Sequence record: OP168898.1
From: Escherichia phage ZCEC14
DNA length: 64,000 nt
Strand: one strand, 5' to 3'
Under the pieces are notes generated by a model. It ran no database searches. It was not told the origin of the DNA and was given only the letters and a program-made list of their open reading frames with translations. Below, piece after piece: positions 2,953-15,714 of the stretch. Every line of letters begins with the position of its first letter. The first letter of the stretch is position 1. A program made the position numbers and the translations under genes.

Positions 2953-3221
2953 TGTTTGTTGTTCACACTATTTATGAAAATGAAGGTAATACTACACGTG
3001 ATTACGGTCACGTAAATCAATTTTTTAGATGCAATCCAGAATTCCGAGCTCAAAAAGACGAACGAATTTTTAAAAAATGTGTGGAGCAAGGTTTCATTTA
3101 CGTCAAGCATTGGATGCAAGGAAATAAAGTTAGAACTACATATCATAGGTCTTTGACTGAGCTTAATGATGAATTGATTTATAATAGAGCTGTAAACCAA
3201 ACTCTAAAGGATGAACAATGA
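2952..3221 (+). CDS. Hypothetical protein (89 aa)
   Basis: ORF, translationally coupled to neighbours. Confidence 0.5.
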   Translation: MFVVHTIYENEGNTTRDYGHVNQFFRCNPEFRAQKDERIFKKCVEQGFIYVKHWMQGNKVRTTYHRSLTELNDELIYNRAVNQTLKDEQ

Positions 3222-4678
3222 TTCTTAAAATTCTGAACGAAATAGCATCTATTGGTTCAACTAAGCAGAAGCAAGCAATTCTTGAAAAGAATAAAGATAA
3301 TGAATTGCTTAAACGAGTATATCGTCTGACTTATTCTCGTGGGTTGCAATATTATATCAAGAAATGGCCTAAACCTGGTATTGCTACCCAGAGTTTTGGA
3401 ATGTTGACTCTTACCGATATGCTTGACTTCATTGAATTCACGTTAGCTACTCGGAAATTGACCGGAAATGCGGCAATTGAGGAATTAACTGGATATATCA
3501 CCGATGGTAAAAAGGATGATGTTGAAGTTTTGCGTCGAGTTATGATGCGAGACCTTGAATGTGGTGCTTCAGTATCTATTGCAAACAAAGTTTGGCCAGG
3601 TTTAATTCCTGAACAACCTCAAATGCTGGCAAGTTCTTATGATGAAAAAGGCATTAGTAAGAATATCAAATTTCCAGCCTTTGCACAGTTAAAAGCAGAT
3701 GGAGCTCGGTGTTTTGCTGAAGTTAGAGGTGATGAATTAGATGATGTTCGTCTTTTATCACGAGCTGGTAATGAATATCTAGGATTAGATCTTCTTAAGG
3801 AAGAGTTAATCAAAATGACTGCTGAAGCCCGCCAGATTCATCCAGAAGGTGTGTTAATCGATGGTGAATTGGTATACCATGAGCAAGTTGAAAAGGAGCC
3901 AGAAGGCCTAGATTTTCTTTTTGGCACTCCTGAAATTAGTAAAGCTAAAGAATTCGCCGAAGTAGCTGAATCTCGTACTGCTTCTAATGGAATCGCCAAT
4001 AAATCTTTAAAGGGAACTATTTCAGAAAAAGAAGCACAATGTATGAAGTTTCAGGTCTGGGATTATGTTCCGTTAGTAGAAATATACGGTCTTCCGACGT
4101 TTCGTTTAAAATATGATGTACGTTTTTCTAAACTAGAACAAATGACATCAGGATATGATAAAGTAATTTTAATTGAAAACCAGCTAGTAAATAACCTAGA
4201 TGAAGCTAAGGTAATTTATAAAAAGTATATTGACCAGGGTCTTGAAGGTATTATTCTCAAAAATACCGATGGATTGTGGGAAAATGCTCGTTCAAAAAAT
4301 CTCTATAAATTTAAAGAAGTAATTGATGTTGATTTAAAAATTGTAGGAATTTATCCTCACCGTAAAGACCCTACTAAAGCGGGTGGATTTATTCTTGAAT
4401 CAGAGTGTGGAAAAATTAAAGTCAATGCTGGCTCAGGTTTAAAAGATAAAGCTGGTGTAAAATCGCATGAACTTGACCGTACTCGTATTATGGAAAACCA
4501 AAATTATTATATTGGAAAAATTCTAGAGTGCGAATGCAACGGTTGGTTAAAATCTGACGGCCGCACTGATTACGTTAAATTATTTCTTCCGATTGCGATT
4601 CGTTTACGTGAAGATAAAACTAAAGCTAATACATTCGAAGATGTATTTGGTGATTTTCATGAGGTAACTGGTCTATGA
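3218..4678 (+). CDS. 30: ATP-dependent DNA ligase (T4 gp30-like, 486 aa)
   Basis: Length and N-terminus match T4 DNA ligase as recalled; adenylation motif KADGAR present. Confidence 0.9.
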   Translation: MILKILNEIASIGSTKQKQAILEKNKDNELLKRVYRLTYSRGLQYYIKKWPKPGIATQSFGMLTLTDMLDFIEFTLATRKLTGNAAIEELTGYITDGKKDDVEVLRRVMMRDLECGASVSIANKVWPGLIPEQPQMLASSYDEKGISKNIKFPAFAQLKADGARCFAEVRGDELDDVRLLSRAGNEYLGLDLLKEELIKMTAEARQIHPEGVLIDGELVYHEQVEKEPEGLDFLFGTPEISKAKEFAEVAESRTASNGIANKSLKGTISEKEAQCMKFQVWDYVPLVEIYGLPTFRLKYDVRFSKLEQMTSGYDKVILIENQLVNNLDEAKVIYKKYIDQGLEGIILKNTDGLWENARSKNLYKFKEVIDVDLKIVGIYPHRKDPTKAGGFILESECGKIKVNAGSGLKDKAGVKSHELDRTRIMENQNYYIGKILECECNGWLKSDGRTDYVKLFLPIAIRLREDKTKANTFEDVFGDFHEVTGL

Positions 4679-4863
4679 AAGCTTACTTAGAAACAATTGT
4701 TATAGCTCAAAAAGAAGGTGGAGATGTTTCTACTTCTGTATCACAAGTCATTCTCGAATTTGTAGATGCGTATGCTTATAATAAATTTACAGAAACATTT
4801 GATGCCTACGAAAAAGGTCCAAAGTTTGAAATATATCGTACTCTCTTACCATTAGATTATTAA
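4675..4863 (+). CDS. Hypothetical protein (62 aa)
   Basis: ORF overlapping ligase stop (ATGA). Confidence 0.45.
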   Translation: MKAYLETIVIAQKEGGDVSTSVSQVILEFVDAYAYNKFTETFDAYEKGPKFEIYRTLLPLDY

Positions 4864-4885
4864 AGGCCTTCGGGCCTTTAATTTT
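4862..4885 (+). terminator. aaaggcc-ttcg-ggccttt hairpin plus T-run
   Basis: Inverted repeat in sequence. Confidence 0.55.
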
Positions 4886-4892
4886 ATAAATA
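4885..4892 (+). promoter_or_regulatory. T4 late promoter core TATAAATA upstream of alt
   Basis: Exact TATAAATA about 24 nt upstream of ATG 4916. Confidence 0.5.
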
Positions 4893-4915
4893 GAATAAAC
4901 ACTAGAGAGGATATG

Positions 4916-7009
4916 ATGGAACTTATTACAGAATTATTTGACGAAGATACTACTCTTCCGATTACAAACTTAAATCCAAAGAAGAAAATACCGCAAATTT
5001 TTTCAGTTCATGTTGATGATGCAATTGAACAACCAGGCTTTCGTTTATGTACCTATACATCTGGAGGTGATACTAACCGTGATTTAAAGATGGGCGATAA
5101 AATGATGCACATTGTTCCTTTTACACTAACTGCTAAAGGTTCAATTGCTAAATTAAAAGGTCTCGGTCCAAGCCCAATTAATTACATCAATTCAGTTTTT
5201 ACTGTTGCAATGCAAACAATGCGTCAGTATAAAATTGATGCCTGTATGCTTCGTATTCTTAAGTCTAAAACTGCTGGTCAAGCTCGACAAATTCAAGTTA
5301 TTGCTGATAGACTTATCCGTAGTCGTTCAGGTGGCAGATACGTCCTTCTTAAGGAACTCTGGGACTATGATAAAAAGTATGCATATATTCTTATACATCG
5401 CAAAAATGTATCACTAGAAGACATTCCAGGAGTTCCGGAAATTAGTACCGAGCTCTTTACTAAAGTTGAATCGAAGGTCGGCGATGTTTATATCAATAAA
5501 GATACCGGAGCTCAAGTAACTAAAAATGAGGCAATTGCAGCATCTATTGCACAAGAAAATGATAAACGTTCTGACCAAGCTGTTATTGTTAAAGTTAAAA
5601 TTTCCCGTAGAGCAATTGCGCAAAGTCAATCATTAGAATCTTCTAGATTTGAAAGTGAATTATTCCAGAAGTATGAATCTACCGCAGCTAATTTTAATAA
5701 ACCTGCTACCGCTCCTTTAATTCCCGAAGCAGAAGAAATGAAGCTTGGAATTAATTCATTAGCTTCTAAAACTAAGGCAGCAAAAATTATTGCTGAAGGA
5801 ACTGCAAATGAACTTCACTATGACTATAAATTCTTTTCAAAAAGTGAGGTTGATGAAGTTTCTGAAAAAATTAAAGATGTAATTCTTAATGCGATTAAAA
5901 ATGAACCAACTACTTCAATAAAATGTTTAGAGAAATACGCAGCAGCTGTTAATAAATTCTTTGAAGAATATAAAGATAATTGGCTTGATAAACATAATAA
6001 AACCCGTAAAGGACAGCCAGATGAAGTCTGGGAAGAAATAACTAAAAATTCCTGGAACGCAGCAAAAACTAAATTCCTCAAACGAATGATTTATAGTTTT
6101 TCTGGAATTGGTGCAGGTCCAATGATTGATATTACTATTGCCCGTGATGGTTCTAAATATACTCCATCACAAAAGCGCGGCATTAGAGAATATTGTGGAT
6201 CAGGATATACTGACATCAATAATCTTCTTTTAGGCCGCTACAATCCAGAACGATATGATGTAATGAGTGAAAAAGAAATTGAATCTGCGATAAATAATTT
6301 AGATTCAGCTTTTGAAAATGGTGATCGTATACCAGAAGGCATTACAGTTTATCGTGCTCAAAGCATGACTGCTCCTATATACGAAGCACTAGTTAAAAAT
6401 AAAGTGTTCTATTTCAGAAATTTTGTATCTACTTCTTTAACTCCTATCATTTTTGGACGTTTTGGAATTACACATGCTGGTATCGGTCTTTTAGAACCAG
6501 AAGCTCGCAATGAATTAACAGTTGATAAAAATGAAGAAGGAATAACTATTAATCCAAACGAAATAAGAGCGTATAAAGAAAATCCTGAATACGTTAAAGT
6601 TCAAATAGGATGGGCAATTGATGGAGCTCATAAAGTTAATGTTGTATATCCAGGAAGTCTCGGAATAGCAACAGAAGCTGAAGTTATTCTACCGCGCGGA
6701 TTGATGGTCAAAGTTAATAAAATAACTGATGCTTCTAATAATGACGGAACAACATCTAATAATACAAAACTCATTCAAGCTGAAGTTATGACTACGGAAG
6801 AACTCACCGAATCAGTAATTTATGACGGTGACCGTCTAATGGAAACTGGCGAAGTAGTTGCAATGACAGGTGATATTGAAATAGAAGACAGAGTTGACTT
6901 TGCATCATTTGTTTCATCAAATGTTAAACAGAAAGTAGAATCATCTCTTGGAATTATTGCGTCTTGCATAGATATTACAAACATGCCTTACAAGTTCGTT
7001 CAAGGATAA
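4916..7009 (+). CDS. alt: Alt-like ADP-ribosyltransferase, copy 1 (697 aa from ATG 4916)
   Basis: N-terminus MELITELFDE (capsid-targeting/gp21-cleavage-like); C-terminal R...STS...EAE (VYRAQ, FVSTSL, EAEVILPRG) ART signature. Confidence 0.85.
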   Translation: MELITELFDEDTTLPITNLNPKKKIPQIFSVHVDDAIEQPGFRLCTYTSGGDTNRDLKMGDKMMHIVPFTLTAKGSIAKLKGLGPSPINYINSVFTVAMQTMRQYKIDACMLRILKSKTAGQARQIQVIADRLIRSRSGGRYVLLKELWDYDKKYAYILIHRKNVSLEDIPGVPEISTELFTKVESKVGDVYINKDTGAQVTKNEAIAASIAQENDKRSDQAVIVKVKISRRAIAQSQSLESSRFESELFQKYESTAANFNKPATAPLIPEAEEMKLGINSLASKTKAAKIIAEGTANELHYDYKFFSKSEVDEVSEKIKDVILNAIKNEPTTSIKCLEKYAAAVNKFFEEYKDNWLDKHNKTRKGQPDEVWEEITKNSWNAAKTKFLKRMIYSFSGIGAGPMIDITIARDGSKYTPSQKRGIREYCGSGYTDINNLLLGRYNPERYDVMSEKEIESAINNLDSAFENGDRIPEGITVYRAQSMTAPIYEALVKNKVFYFRNFVSTSLTPIIFGRFGITHAGIGLLEPEARNELTVDKNEEGITINPNEIRAYKENPEYVKVQIGWAIDGAHKVNVVYPGSLGIATEAEVILPRGLMVKVNKITDASNNDGTTSNNTKLIQAEVMTTEELTESVIYDGDRLMETGEVVAMTGDIEIEDRVDFASFVSSNVKQKVESSLGIIASCIDITNMPYKFVQG

Positions 7010-7012
7010 ATC

Positions 7013-9070
7013 ATGGAACTTATTACAGAATTATTTGACGGCGCTTCGGCGCCGGTTGTTAACTTAAATCCTAAGCATAAAATACCTCAAATTTTTGCTA
7101 TTCAAGCCGGCGAAGAAAGCGTGCTTCCTGGATTTAGATTTTGTACATACACCTCTGGTGGTGATACAAATAAAAACGTTAAGCCAGGTGATAAAATGAT
7201 GCATATCGTAATGATAGGTGTCAATGAGAAACTATCATTAGTTAAACTTAAAAACTTGGGTGGAAATCCAATTGGTGTCATTAATGCTGTTTTTGATACT
7301 GCTCTTCAAACAATGAAACAATATAAAATCGACGCATGCCTATTCCGCGTACTAAAAAGTAAAACAAATGGCGCAGCTCGTCAAATGCAAGTTATTGCTG
7401 ACCGTTTAGTACGTACTAAAGGAGCAGGTCGTTATGTTCTTTTAAAGGAAATCTGGGACTATGATAAAAAGTATGCATATATTATGGTTTACCGTAAAAA
7501 TGCCAATTTAGAAGACATTCCAGGTGTACCTCCTATTTCAACTGAGTTATTCACAAAAGTTGAATCGAAGGTCGGTGATGTTTATGTAGACGTTAAAACA
7601 GGTAATGCTGTTCCTAAAGCTGTCGCTGTTGCTGCTTCTATTGCTTTAGAAAATGATAAACGTACTGACCAAGCGGTTATTCAGAAAACTAAAATTAGTC
7701 GTCGATTAGCAGCGCAAGCTCAATATTCTACTGTCGATGCTTCACTTCAGGGTGATAGCTTCGCTGCCAAGAAATATCAAGAGTTTGAATCTAAAGTTCC
7801 GGTATATAAAGCAGAAGGACCAATGAACTCTGGCGTTATTCAGATTGGTTCAAACTTCAGCAAAGGAGCTATCGGTGGTATGAGGAGTGCTTCTCGTTTT
7901 AAATCTAACGATTATGAACTAGAAAACTTCCGAAATCATATTGCATTAGCCCATGCGCGTTTACGTGATCCATCTATCAAGTTGCAGAGCGATATAACAT
8001 ATCAAGGTTCTCAAGAATATTTAAAGAATAAAGAATTCTTTGATTATAAAACTGATAAAATTTTAAGCGATCTTGCTGATATTAATATTTCTAATAGCTT
8101 TGATGTTATTAAGAAAATTATCAATGATTTGGTTAAAGGTTCTAAAGCTACGCCAGATGAAAAGACAGCTATTATTCAATTTGTAATGAATGGCATTTAT
8201 AAATTGATTAATGAATCTGCTGCTCAGGCGTATGAATATGCAAGTACTGAAGTAACTCCAAAAGGATTAACTCAGGCTGAATCTGACGTAATTGAAGATT
8301 ATTGTGCTGATTCATATGTTGAAATGAACTCGTTCCTTTTGGGTAAACCAGATTCTACCCGTGAAGAATATATGGAACGAGCTATTAAACACATCGAGAC
8401 GTTGGATTCTGCCTTTGCCAAAGGATCAGTTCTTCCTCCAGGAACTACGCTTTATCGCGGACAAGAAGTTACATTTAAAACTTTGCGTCATAACATTGAA
8501 AATAAAATGTTCTATTTCAAGAACTTCGTATCCACATCGCTTAAACCAAATATCTTCGGTGAGCATGGTAAAAACTATATGGCTCTAGATGATTCCGGCG
8601 CAGTATTTTCTGGTGAAGGAGAAGGTTCCGTTGATGCAGAAGATTTGATGCATATGGGTAGTCATTCTACATATGCTAATGAAGATGCTGAAACTAGCGT
8701 GGGTATGGTAATTAAAGGAGCTGAACGAATCAAAGTTATCGTTCCAGGTCATTTATCAGGATTTCCATCAGAAGCTGAAGTTATTCTACCACGTGGAATT
8801 TTACTGAAGATTAATAAAGTAAGTACGTACTTTATGAAAGAAACTGCTTATAACAAGTATCTAATCGAAGGTACAATCGTTCCTCCTTCCGAACAATTAG
8901 AAGAATCGGTATATGATGGTGACCATCTGATGGAAACTGGTGAAGTTCGTCCAATGACTGGATTTAACCAATTCCTTGTAGAAGAATCAAAAGAAGAGGA
9001 AAACGAAGTTTCTCAAATCTTGGCTTCTTTGGTTAACATCAACGGAATGTCTAAAAAGTTCAAGATGTAG
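7013..9070 (+). CDS. Alt-like ADP-ribosyltransferase, copy 2 (685 aa), diverged paralog
   Basis: Same N-terminus MELITELFDG and same R/STS/EAEVILPRG motifs; middle region diverged from copy 1. Confidence 0.8.
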   Translation: MELITELFDGASAPVVNLNPKHKIPQIFAIQAGEESVLPGFRFCTYTSGGDTNKNVKPGDKMMHIVMIGVNEKLSLVKLKNLGGNPIGVINAVFDTALQTMKQYKIDACLFRVLKSKTNGAARQMQVIADRLVRTKGAGRYVLLKEIWDYDKKYAYIMVYRKNANLEDIPGVPPISTELFTKVESKVGDVYVDVKTGNAVPKAVAVAASIALENDKRTDQAVIQKTKISRRLAAQAQYSTVDASLQGDSFAAKKYQEFESKVPVYKAEGPMNSGVIQIGSNFSKGAIGGMRSASRFKSNDYELENFRNHIALAHARLRDPSIKLQSDITYQGSQEYLKNKEFFDYKTDKILSDLADINISNSFDVIKKIINDLVKGSKATPDEKTAIIQFVMNGIYKLINESAAQAYEYASTEVTPKGLTQAESDVIEDYCADSYVEMNSFLLGKPDSTREEYMERAIKHIETLDSAFAKGSVLPPGTTLYRGQEVTFKTLRHNIENKMFYFKNFVSTSLKPNIFGEHGKNYMALDDSGAVFSGEGEGSVDAEDLMHMGSHSTYANEDAETSVGMVIKGAERIKVIVPGHLSGFPSEAEVILPRGILLKINKVSTYFMKETAYNKYLIEGTIVPPSEQLEESVYDGDHLMETGEVRPMTGFNQFLVEESKEEENEVSQILASLVNINGMSKKFKM

Positions 9071-9101
9071 TTTACAAGTCACTCGTGTTGTGTTATAGTA
9101 G
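9070..9101 (+). promoter_or_regulatory. Early-type promoter candidate (GTTTAC then gttatagtag)
   Basis: Motif similarity to other cassettes; upstream of ORF 9131. Confidence 0.35.
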
Positions 9102-9130: not shown

Positions 9131-9421
9131 ATGAAATCTTCTTTGCGCTTTTTAGGTCAAGAACTTGTAGTTGAAGGCGTTATTCCTGCTGATAACGCTT
9201 TTAATGAAGCGGTTTACGACGAATTTATCAAAATTTTTGGAACAGATAAAAAGTTTGGAATTTTTCCTTCTGAAAATTTTTCAAAGCCAGAACAGACTGA
9301 AAACATTTTCCAAGGTGTAGTAACAGGTAAATTTGAGTCAGAAGCTCCGGTAAAAATTGAAGTTTATATTGAAGACAGTTTAGTTGCTTCAGTTGCTGCT
9401 TTTATTTCATTCCGTAAATAA
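9131..9421 (+). CDS. Hypothetical protein (96 aa)
   Basis: ORF with RBS gaggaacacaaaATG. Confidence 0.55.
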   Translation: MKSSLRFLGQELVVEGVIPADNAFNEAVYDEFIKIFGTDKKFGIFPSENFSKPEQTENIFQGVVTGKFESEAPVKIEVYIEDSLVASVAAFISFRK

Positions 9422-9425
9422 AAAC

Positions 9426-9447
9426 ATGGGGACCGAAAGGTCCCCAT
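9426..9447. terminator. Bidirectional hairpin ggggacc-gaaa-ggtcccc between convergent genes
   Basis: Perfect inverted repeat between + ORF end (9421) and gp54 end (9450). Confidence 0.6.
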
Positions 9448-15706: not shown

Positions 15707-15714
15707 TATTTATA
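15707..15714 (-). promoter_or_regulatory. Late promoter TATAAATA (minus strand) upstream of gene 51
   Basis: tatttata on + strand = TATAAATA on -. Confidence 0.45.

Follow-up and report, generated by a model that had tools for sequence, protein, structure and literature searches.

The 64,000-nucleotide stretch of Escherichia phage ZCEC14 analyzed here (OP168898.1; the window) carries the standard alt-alt2 locus of the T-even phages, two adjacent genes, referred to as A (alt) and B (alt2), that appear to encode two head-packaged, injected arginine ADP-ribosyltransferases (ARTs) with different substrate sets. We give this reading a probability of roughly two in three. In each protein, an N-terminal domain specific to the phage lineage (~238 aa) would be followed by a helical middle and an arginine-type ART domain, with short propeptides at both ends. 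Like T4 Alt, both would be built into the prohead core, and trimmed by the gp21 protease after E6 and after an L-x-E near residue 631/632; they would remain in the mature head and enter the cell together with the DNA. With host NAD+ as substrate, the injected enzymes would then ADP-ribosylate proteins of the host from the outset of infection. The N-domain common to A and B may act as a packaging and delivery (or other shared) module, and the divergent middle plus ART modules would direct the two enzymes to different substrate sets. For Alt2, we infer the packaging, the enzymatic activity and the distinct target set; a literature search on this protein found no functional, enzymology, target or virion-proteomics study.

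The locus (Table 1) has the conserved T-even arrangement, from gene 30/alt.1 to alt.-3/gene 54. The gene order is ligase (3218-4678), alt.1, A, B and alt.-3, followed by gp54, gp48 and gp29 on the opposite strand, and gene A takes the position of T4 alt, between alt.1 and the place of the T4 remnant. A second possible ATG for gene A lies at 4913 (698 aa), but the ATG at 4916 has better spacing from the Shine-Dalgarno sequence (GAGAGG, 4905-4910). Gene B begins 3 nt past the stop codon of A, with its own Shine-Dalgarno sequence, AAGGA, 7 nt upstream. In a motif scan of the window, which returned 22 late-promoter sites against 9.3 expected, TATAAATA is the sole plus-strand late promoter between 4885 and 15711, and none lies in front of gene B. 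Judged by this motif, A and B would be co-transcribed from one late promoter, and the late expression of the T-even Alt family is predicted for both. The early-type promoter for alt.-3 marks, by its sequence, the end of this late unit. At the other end, the hairpin behind alt.1 is probably where the upstream early transcript ends, although the consensus terminator scan did not list this hairpin.

Table 1. Features of the alt-alt2 locus in the window
Feature	Position	Strand	Remarks
GC-rich hairpin AAAGGCC-TTCG-GGCCTTT	4862..4879	+	Immediately 3' of alt.1 stop codon; sequence read
T4-type late promoter TATAAATA	4885-4892	+	In front of gene A, 24 nt upstream
Gene A, alt ortholog	4916-7009	+	697 aa; A-type allele, 99.3% identical to Bas37_0033 'Alt'
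A, N-terminal domain (aa 1-238)	4916..5629	+	100% identical to T4 Alt, 68% to B
A, variable helical middle (about aa 239-412)	5630..6151	+	13% identity to B, 32% to T4 Alt
A, ART catalytic domain	6152..6802	+	PF03496 129 bits; CdtA alignment
A, predicted C-terminal gp21 site LTE-632 (6803-6811), then 65-aa propeptide	6803..7006	+	Homologous to T4 LTE-619
Gene B, alt2	7013-9070	+	685 aa; 99.1% identical to Bas37_0032 'Alt2'
B, N-terminal domain (aa 1-238)	7013..7726	+	AF2 pLDDT 85.9, pTM 0.84, alpha/beta fold
9-bp direct repeat CTAAAAAGT, left copy	7352..7360	+	Left edge of T4 deletion
B, all-helical middle (aa 239-415)	7727..8257	+	AF2 secondary structure
B, ART catalytic domain	8258..8896	+	ARTT loop F-P-S-E-A-E
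B, predicted C-terminal gp21 site LEE-631 (8897-8905), then 54-aa low-confidence tail	8897..9067	+
9-bp direct repeat CTAAAAAGT, right copy	9051..9059	+	Right edge of T4 deletion
Early-type promoter for alt.-3	9071..9099	+	TTTACA, 17 nt, TATAGT, with TG

The sequence-only reading had implied that such a pair is unusual, and this is ruled out by megablast and tblastn censuses. A full second copy is found in about 400 phage records, with a B-type copy at no less than 95% identity likewise in about 400, and the T4-type remnant is found in 91. A further band of 101 records at '60-80%' identity seems to have arisen artificially, with fragments of the two genes merged into one match: the three listed matches in this band are two-piece and span both genes, and the PE37 B is 97-99% identical. 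The alt-alt2 pair is the majority state in Tequatrovirus and an already known, standard locus that carries annotation in hundreds of genomes; the labels used are 'Alt/Alt2' or 'Alt-like RNA polymerase ADP-ribosyltransferase (x2)', and GenBank names the two genes of BASEL phage Bas37 'Alt' and 'Alt2'. The Alt2 or alt.-2 genes of other T-even phages (Bas37, Bas39, RB32, T2, T6) share the position and the 3-nt spacing of B and show no substantive difference, and represent the same gene; the BASEL Alt2 proteins checked (Bas37_0032, Bas39_0033) are 99.1-99.9% identical to B, and for RB32 alt.-2 the identity rounds to 100%.

T4 is the exception among the T-even phages because most of Alt2 is deleted there. 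As the sequence-only reading had stated, T4 has one full-length alt followed by short ORFs, alt.-1 (61 aa) and alt.-2 (67 aa), which the T4 GenBank note already calls the remnant of an alt duplication. These ORFs correspond to about the first 117 codons of a B-type gene, and their phrog families match B (138 and 131 bits) better than A (78 and 70 bits). T4 has an internal stop and lacks, out of frame, the 1,699 bp between the CTAAAAAGT repeats, whereas gene B in the window is intact; a junction probe splits exactly at these repeats in about 400 records. On sequence comparison, alt.-1/alt.-2 are a B-type gene after a 1,699-bp deletion between 9-bp repeats.

A and B are clearly paralogs (BLASTP 41% identity over 719 columns, E 1e-158), an outcome of the pairwise alignment that the sequence-only reading had proposed. 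Its account of adjacent ORFs of about 690 aa with a shared MELITELFD(E/G) start and a conserved first 230 residues agrees with two plus-strand proteins of 697 and 685 aa that both begin in this way and are 68% identical across the ~238-aa N-domain. Identity then falls to 13% over aa 239-415 and is 37% in the ART domain and 43% at the C-terminus. The description of a conserved N-part and a diverged center is accurate because of these regional identities (68% vs 13%). The C-proximal part is also diverged, yet it is clearly alignable, and the difference that had been placed in the middle domains takes in the ART domain as well, covering the entire effector module. Across the family, conservation is lowest in the middle region, at 0.16-0.37.

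Both proteins match phrog_802 end to end (A, E 1e-272; B, E 7e-257), as expected of full-length members of the Alt family. The N-terminal domain family is Pfam PF26846, Tevenvirinae_ADPRT, assigned on homologs of A and B and precomputed on P0001, a protein 99% identical to B. A search of a Pfam copy without PF26846 gave no match to the shared N-domain even at E 10, and Foldseek gave weak GNAT matches alone (E 4e-3 or worse, TM 0.26-0.39); neither a GNAT nor a nucleic-acid-binding fold is claimed for it. NCBIfam has no model for A or B. In the AF2 model of B, pLDDT falls to 45-69 after residue 629.

With respect to T4 Alt (NP_049811), gene A has the same locus, late promoter context, ITE-6 and LTE sites, and R/STS/ExE residues; identity is 100% in the N-domain (aa 1-245) and >92% in the last 90 aa. 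What differs is the allele of the middle plus ART, at 32% and 66% identity (72% overall), and T4 gives no match at the nucleotide level from 5722 to 6152. B has the same architecture as T4 Alt, with an N-domain that is 67% identical, but its ART domain and middle are only 38% and 12% identical.

The ART domains of both proteins belong to Pfam PF03496, ADPrib_exo_Tox, scoring 129 bits for A and 71.9 bits for B against a cut-off of 23.4 bits. The R...STS...E-x-E signature is kept in both translations: R480 (6353-6355), S505-T506-S507 (6428-6436) and E587-A-E589 (6674-6682) in A, and R482 (8456-8458), S507-T508-S509 (8531-8539) and E587-A-E589 (8771-8779) in B. Both sets are complete on alignment, so that the loss of catalytic residues from one copy, named beforehand as counting against the claim, did not occur. 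Across an alignment of 57 family sequences, the R, the first S and both E never vary. A phmmer search of B against PDB sequences gave no match; in a phmmer alignment, the R and ExE fall on the VYR and GEYE positions of C. difficile CdtA, which we take to be its catalytic residues. In T4 Alt, replacement of the equivalent Glu (E577A) abolishes activity (PMC11404850). A and B thus have the appearance of catalytically competent R-S-E (ARTC) mono-ADP-ribosyltransferases of the arginine-type E-x-E class, and B shows the ART fold. The R-S-E ARTs of the C3-like and binary toxins (Vis, C3bot, Certhrax, Ia/CdtA/CPILE-a, VIP2, SpvB) are delivered by secretion or a pore-forming B component, in contrast to the phage head and DNA ejection of the Alt type, and their adaptor domains are unrelated to the N-terminal 415 aa of Alt/Alt2; sequence identity to these toxins is only 14-26%.

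Strong purifying selection acts on A and B alike, with dN/dS values among close orthologs of 0.023-0.035 (A) and 0.014-0.047 (B); the comparisons for B rest on 56-73 synonymous against 3-12 non-synonymous differences. It is therefore highly improbable that Alt2 is a decaying duplicate or pseudo-enzyme heading for the state of T4, although T4, with its internal stop and 1.7-kb deletion, provides such an end point and the more distant relatives P0257 and P0281 have degenerate ART motifs. The dN/dS values and the intact motifs rule out B as a degenerate copy: every catalytic residue is in place, and the AF2 model of B is confident as well as the B-type copy being widespread at high identity. The earlier interpretation of two intact, competent-looking R-S-E ARTs, neither of them decaying, thus stands, whereas its implied view of the arrangement as unusual does not.

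The gp21 sites are present as motifs at both ends of both proteins. I4-T5-E6 lies at 4925-4933 in A and at 7022-7030 in B, and an L-x-E occurs in both at the position of T4 LTE-619 (LTE-632 in A, LEE-631 in B); E6 and E631 are invariant across the 57 members of the family. The C-terminal site of T4 Alt was mapped by mass spectrometry (PMC5694885), and T4 Alt is found at about 40 copies in the mature head and is injected with the DNA (PMC9026906). Processed Alt2 is predicted to comprise residues 7-631, about 69 kDa, and the mass calculation applied to the A and B sites also returns the 68.2 kDa of mature T4 Alt. Because the single late promoter, ITE-6 and the L-x-E sites are kept, entry into the head is plausible for both A and B. 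Alternatively, Alt2 may be made late and not injected, acting late in the producing cell or serving mainly as a structural part of the prohead core with a secondary ART activity. Late-promoter expression by itself is no proof of packaging, and a structural role could account for the intermediate transposon phenotype given below for Bas37 Alt2. We find this improbable, as E6 and the C-terminal L-x-E, the prohead-protease sites in T4 Alt, are kept in B and invariant in the family; a purely structural Alt2 is disfavored because the catalytic residues are invariant too.

The divergence between A and B concentrates where R-S-E ARTs read their substrates, that is, in the ARTT loop, the post-STS insert and the helical middle. 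The ARTT turn-1 residue and its context read F-P-S-E-A-E in B, I-A-T-E-A-E in A and P-S-N-E-M-E in T4, and the post-STS inserts of both paralogs and T4 Alt (76, 78 and 67 aa) are unalignable. Further evidence comes from a preprint (10.1101/2025.11.20.689424) with transposon data on Bas37, whose Alt and Alt2 genes are 99% identical to A and B. There, Bas37 Alt is non-essential (164/179 TA sites hit, mean 203.6 reads), as is T4 Alt (174/179 TA sites), whereas Alt2 is classed 'Intermediate' (116/164 TA sites, mean 44.5 reads), and A-type Alt cannot stand in for T4 Alt against Mokosh type I. The 'Intermediate' class could come from harmful truncated products and not from loss of function. Alt2 is not among the conditionally essential genes vs Mokosh named in the supplementary discussion of the preprint and is unchanged in two of its clinical-isolate tables. 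Different targets for A and B are plausible and are favored because all three substrate-reading regions diverge, because T4-type and A-type Alt are non-interchangeable against Mokosh and because the fitness class of Alt2 differs from that of Alt, the last two points as reported in the preprint.

It is unlikely that Alt2 is instead a redundant back-up or dosage copy, packaged and active on essentially the set of host proteins that Alt modifies (RNA polymerase alpha and others). The two proteins are alike in architecture and E-x-E motif and share one operon and the same processing motifs; T4 and 90 other records have lost Alt2 at no obvious laboratory cost, and T4 Alt itself is non-essential by the TA-site counts of the preprint. 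Indeed, Alt2 is dispensable at least in some settings, since 91 of ~500 Tequatrovirus-like records, T4 included, lack it. Against redundancy, the ART domains are only 37% identical, with unalignable ARTT and post-STS regions, strong purifying selection conserves each type, and A-type and T4-type copies recur in different genera. In the preprint, Bas37 Alt and Alt2 fall in different fitness classes, and A-type Alt and T4-type Alt, although closer to each other (66% ART identity), fail to replace one another against Mokosh.

Two enzymes with different substrate sets would also fit a wider pattern. The 57 representatives divide into 11 N-domain lineages vs 22 ART types, and the A-type and T4-type ART are shared across genera. 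A Dhakavirus copy matches the A ART module at 94% identity, against 59-68% for its flanking genes. Family-wide, the N-domain thus tracks phage lineage, and the ART modules are reshuffled between genera. P0265, with no recognizable ART motifs after its N-domain, is the sole candidate exception, too thin a basis for a general claim of N-domains fused to other cargo, which was dropped; ART motifs are degenerate in P0252, P0257 and P0281. In pairing a lineage-tracking N-domain with exchanged ART modules, present in 1-3 tandem copies, the A/B family resembles polymorphic toxins and MuF-fused phage effectors, in which a conserved delivery part carries an exchangeable C-terminal effector. MuF-ART fusions have been described as packaged effectors by Iyer et al. 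(PMC9503650). The A/B family differs in having no MuF domain and, save for candidate P0265, in always carrying an ART, with no diverse toxin repertoire. A more tentative reading, given less than even confidence, would make the Tevenvirinae alt locus an array of polymorphic effectors, in which an N-domain adapted to the capsid or ejection machinery of its own phage carries helical-plus-ART warheads traded between genera, with tandem gain and collapse by recombination. Alt2 would then be a second injected warhead with a target other than that of Alt, possibly a defense system, as with T4 Alt and Mokosh type I.

Within the window, the pair is an ordinary, already annotated feature, and its value is as a pointer to alt2 as a gene to study. 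Nearly all knowledge of injected phage ADP-ribosyltransferases comes from T4, a deletion derivative with one of several Alt alleles, whereas most of its relatives, T2, T6 and the window phage among them, encode two distinct enzymes and may inject both. If the array reading is true, T4 hid half of the system through its Alt2 deletion. Should Alt2 prove to hit targets of its own, T-even phages would have a wider reach in early host takeover and anti-defense than the T4 model suggests, and variation in allele and copy number at the alt locus would help determine host range, which matters for phage therapy cocktails.

The window is part of a Tequatrovirus (T4-like) genome, and its gene order from the DNA ligase gp30 to gp29 matches that of T4. 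Two adjacent genes, A (the alt ortholog, 697 aa) and B (alt2, 685 aa), follow alt.1. The sequence-only reading described them as tandem paralogs sharing their first 230 or so residues but diverged in their central and C-proximal regions, and alignment bears this out: the proteins are 41% identical by BLASTP (E = 1e-158), with 68% identity over aa 1-238, 13% over aa 239-415, 37% in the ADP-ribosyltransferase (ART) domain and 43% in the C-terminal 60 aa. The comparison it proposed, of A with B and with T4 Alt, reveals both this paralogy and a mosaic relationship between A and T4. Both proteins match the Pfam family ADPrib_exo_Tox above the cut-off of 23.4 (A, 129 bits; B, 71.9 bits), and the Alt PHROG covers each end to end. 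Gene A opens with two adjacent ATG codons (window 4913-4918), of which that at 4916 is favoured by Shine-Dalgarno spacing. The annotated start varies among phages, giving 698 aa in the BASEL phages, relatives with genes annotated Alt and Alt2, and 682 aa (MELITE...) in T4; the residue number E577 in the literature on T4 Alt agrees with the longer form.

Features of the alt locus (window coordinates)
Feature	Position	Remark
DNA ligase gp30	3218-4678	
alt.1	4675-4863	Pfam Phage_blade
GC hairpin	4862-4879	directly after the alt.1 stop
T4 late promoter TATAAATA	4885-4892	after the hairpin, upstream of A
ORF A	4916-7009	
ORF B	7013-9070	
9-bp direct repeat CTAAAAAGT, left copy	7352-7360	exact end point of the T4 deletion
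9-bp direct repeat CTAAAAAGT, right copy	9051-9059	exact end point of the T4 deletion
Early-type promoter (TTTACA, 17 nt, TATAGT)	9071-9099	downstream of B; serves alt.-3
alt.-3	9131-9421	DUF5498
Bidirectional terminator	9426-9447	ends alt.-3; common to gp54
gp54, gp48, gp29	after alt.-3	opposite strand to A and B

The catalytic motifs had been read as intact in both copies, and a residue check upholds this, with neither copy lacking them. The R, S-T-S and E-x-E motifs are represented by R480, S505-T-S507 and E587-A-E589 in A, and by R482, S507-T-S509 and E587-A-E589 in B. In alignment the R and E-x-E of both proteins fall on the corresponding positions of CdtA, and the R, the first S and both E residues are invariant among 57 diverse relatives. 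The second glutamate of the E-x-E is the counterpart of T4 Alt E577, the mutation of which to alanine yields an inactive enzyme (PMC11404850). Among close orthologs (window, RB32 and PE37), dN/dS is 0.023-0.035 for A, with 44-66 synonymous versus 5-7 non-synonymous differences, and 0.014-0.047 for B, with 56-73 versus 3-12. A confident AlphaFold2 model of B (pLDDT 81.4, pTM 0.69; 57 input sequences) comprises an alpha/beta N-domain (aa 1 to ~215), an all-helical middle (aa 220-415), an ART domain (aa 420-625) and, after it, a low-confidence tail.

B starts 3 nt past the stop codon of A, with its own AAGGA, and on this strand no further late promoter is found between the one upstream of A and the next at 15711. 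The lone late promoter, the 3-nt gap and the early-type promoter after B together indicate that A and B are most likely expressed as a single late transcript, the pattern expected of genes for head proteins. Each T4 head contains about 40 copies of Alt (PMC9026906), which the prohead protease gp21 trims at ITE-6 and LTE-619 to a mature mass of 68.2 kDa (PMC5694885), a value that our calculation reproduces. The predicted gp21 sites are ITE-6 and LTE-632 in A (mature protein, 70.1 kDa) and ITE-6 and LEE-631 in B (69.2 kDa), and E6 and E631 are invariant family-wide. Conservation of these cleavage motifs supports the packaging and processing of B, without proving either, and both A and B are intact ARTs that are probably packaged in the head. 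Elsewhere in the locus, the HIDEN-SEQ supplement records the alt.-3 homolog bas37_0031 as depleted on one clinical E. coli isolate (log2FC -2.70, adjusted p 0.02).

A holds the position of alt in T4, and B that of alt.-1 and alt.-2, two short ORFs that, according to the T4 GenBank note, stem from an ancient duplication of the beginning of alt. The PHROG families of alt.-1 and alt.-2 score higher on B (138 and 131 bits) than on A (78 and 70 bits), which marks the T4 fragments as B-type. T4 lacks window 7361-9059, an out-of-frame deletion of 1,699 bp, and its end points indicate that alt.-1 and alt.-2 arose by deletion between the CTAAAAAGT repeats. Of 499 phage records hit by a 301-bp probe spanning the T4 junction, 91 match contiguously, as in the T4-type deletion; in the remaining records, as judged from sampled rows, the match breaks exactly at the 9-bp repeat. 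By tblastn, the B N-domain is found at an identity of at least 95% in 396 records and the B middle plus ART in 300; another 101 show a lower apparent identity to the latter, it appears only because the search joined pieces of both genes into one match. Both genes are present in T2, T6, RB32, RB27, RB33 and the BASEL phages, under annotations that include "Alt-like RNA polymerase ADP-ribosyltransferase (x2)", "alt.-2: similar to alt" and "ADP-ribosyltransferase Alt2", and duplications of alt were remarked on by Nolan et al. 2006 (PMC1524935). Given the T4 comparison, the record counts and these annotations, the tandem Alt/Alt2 pair is real, common and previously annotated rather than new, and T4 is the odd one out among its relatives.

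Copy number varies further afield. Escherichia phage AnYang, a Dhakavirus, has three tandem alt-like genes with 3 nt between each (L004 150-6410), the middle one bearing a third ART type, and in the Acinetobacter phage Ac42 the locus is inverted and holds two copies, under the annotation "alt gene duplication" (L007 4986-8961). One alt gene is found in the Klebsiella phage examined, and a single copy in each of the sampled Klebsiella and Mosigvirus matches. A metagenomic Logan contig, SRR24155011_2765, carries a single hybrid alt gene between alt.1 and alt.-3 (L012 4001-6055; protein P0005), which is A-type to nt ~540 and B-type from there, the crossover falling in a 20-nt stretch that the two genes share exactly (window 5462 in A, 7556 in B). 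This hybrid could be a recombinational collapse of the pair or an assembly chimera. Four distant relatives in our representative library keep the N-domain and have no normal ART: the C-terminal 370 aa of P0265 (541 aa) match nothing recognisable, P0252 (1142 aa) combines a degenerate ART with ~600 additional residues, and the R/STS/ExE motifs of P0257 and P0281 are degraded.

Alignment with T4 shows that the alt gene itself is mosaic (window 5650-6800, A aa ~245-630): identity between A and T4 Alt is 100% in aa 1-245 and above 92% in the last 90 aa, with only 14-67% between. The ART module of A is 94% identical (dS 0.48) to that of copy 1 in the Dhakaviruses AnYang and IME281, whereas their flanking genes are only 59-68% identical, with dS above 1.5 elsewhere; this disparity implies that the effector module has been exchanged recently across genera. 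The N-domains of AnYang and IME281 are 46% identical to that of A, and the T4-type module is found again, at 77-80%, on Dhakavirus N-domains. Clustering of 57 representatives at 60% identity separates 11 N-domain lineages but 22 ART types, with seven ART types in one lineage and four in that of Tequatrovirus, and by this census ART modules and N-domain lineages are decoupled. The pattern may be likened to that of polymorphic effectors, in which a conserved, lineage-bound N-terminal module is combined with exchangeable C-terminal warheads.

The E-x-E form of A and B presumably points to arginine acceptors, in line with the ARTT-loop literature. The loop at the E-x-E, the ARTT, reads F-P-S-E-A-E in B, I-A-T-E-A-E in A and P-S-N-E-M-E in T4; the inserts between the STS and this loop (76, 78 and 67 aa, respectively) cannot be aligned, and conservation across the family is lowest in the helical middle. 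The substrate-reading segments of R-S-E ARTs are strongly unlike between B, A and T4. Some experimental indications come from Bas37, whose Alt is 99.3% identical to A and whose Alt2 is 99.1% identical to B. According to a preprint, T4 needs its Alt to withstand the Mokosh type I defence system, and the A-type Bas37 Alt is no substitute for it; its supplementary transposon data class Bas37 Alt as non-essential (164/179 TA sites, mean 203.6 reads) and Alt2 as "Intermediate" (116/164 TA sites, mean 44.5 reads), and Alt2 is absent from the genes that its supplementary discussion names as conditionally essential against Mokosh (10.1101/2025.11.20.689424). On these results, Alt and Alt2 are not equivalent in the Bas37 system. 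The searched literature yielded no data on the target or activity of Alt2, and distinct targets for Alt and Alt2 are plausible. What remains of interest at the locus is what Alt2 does, and how ART modules are shuffled as units between genera at alt.
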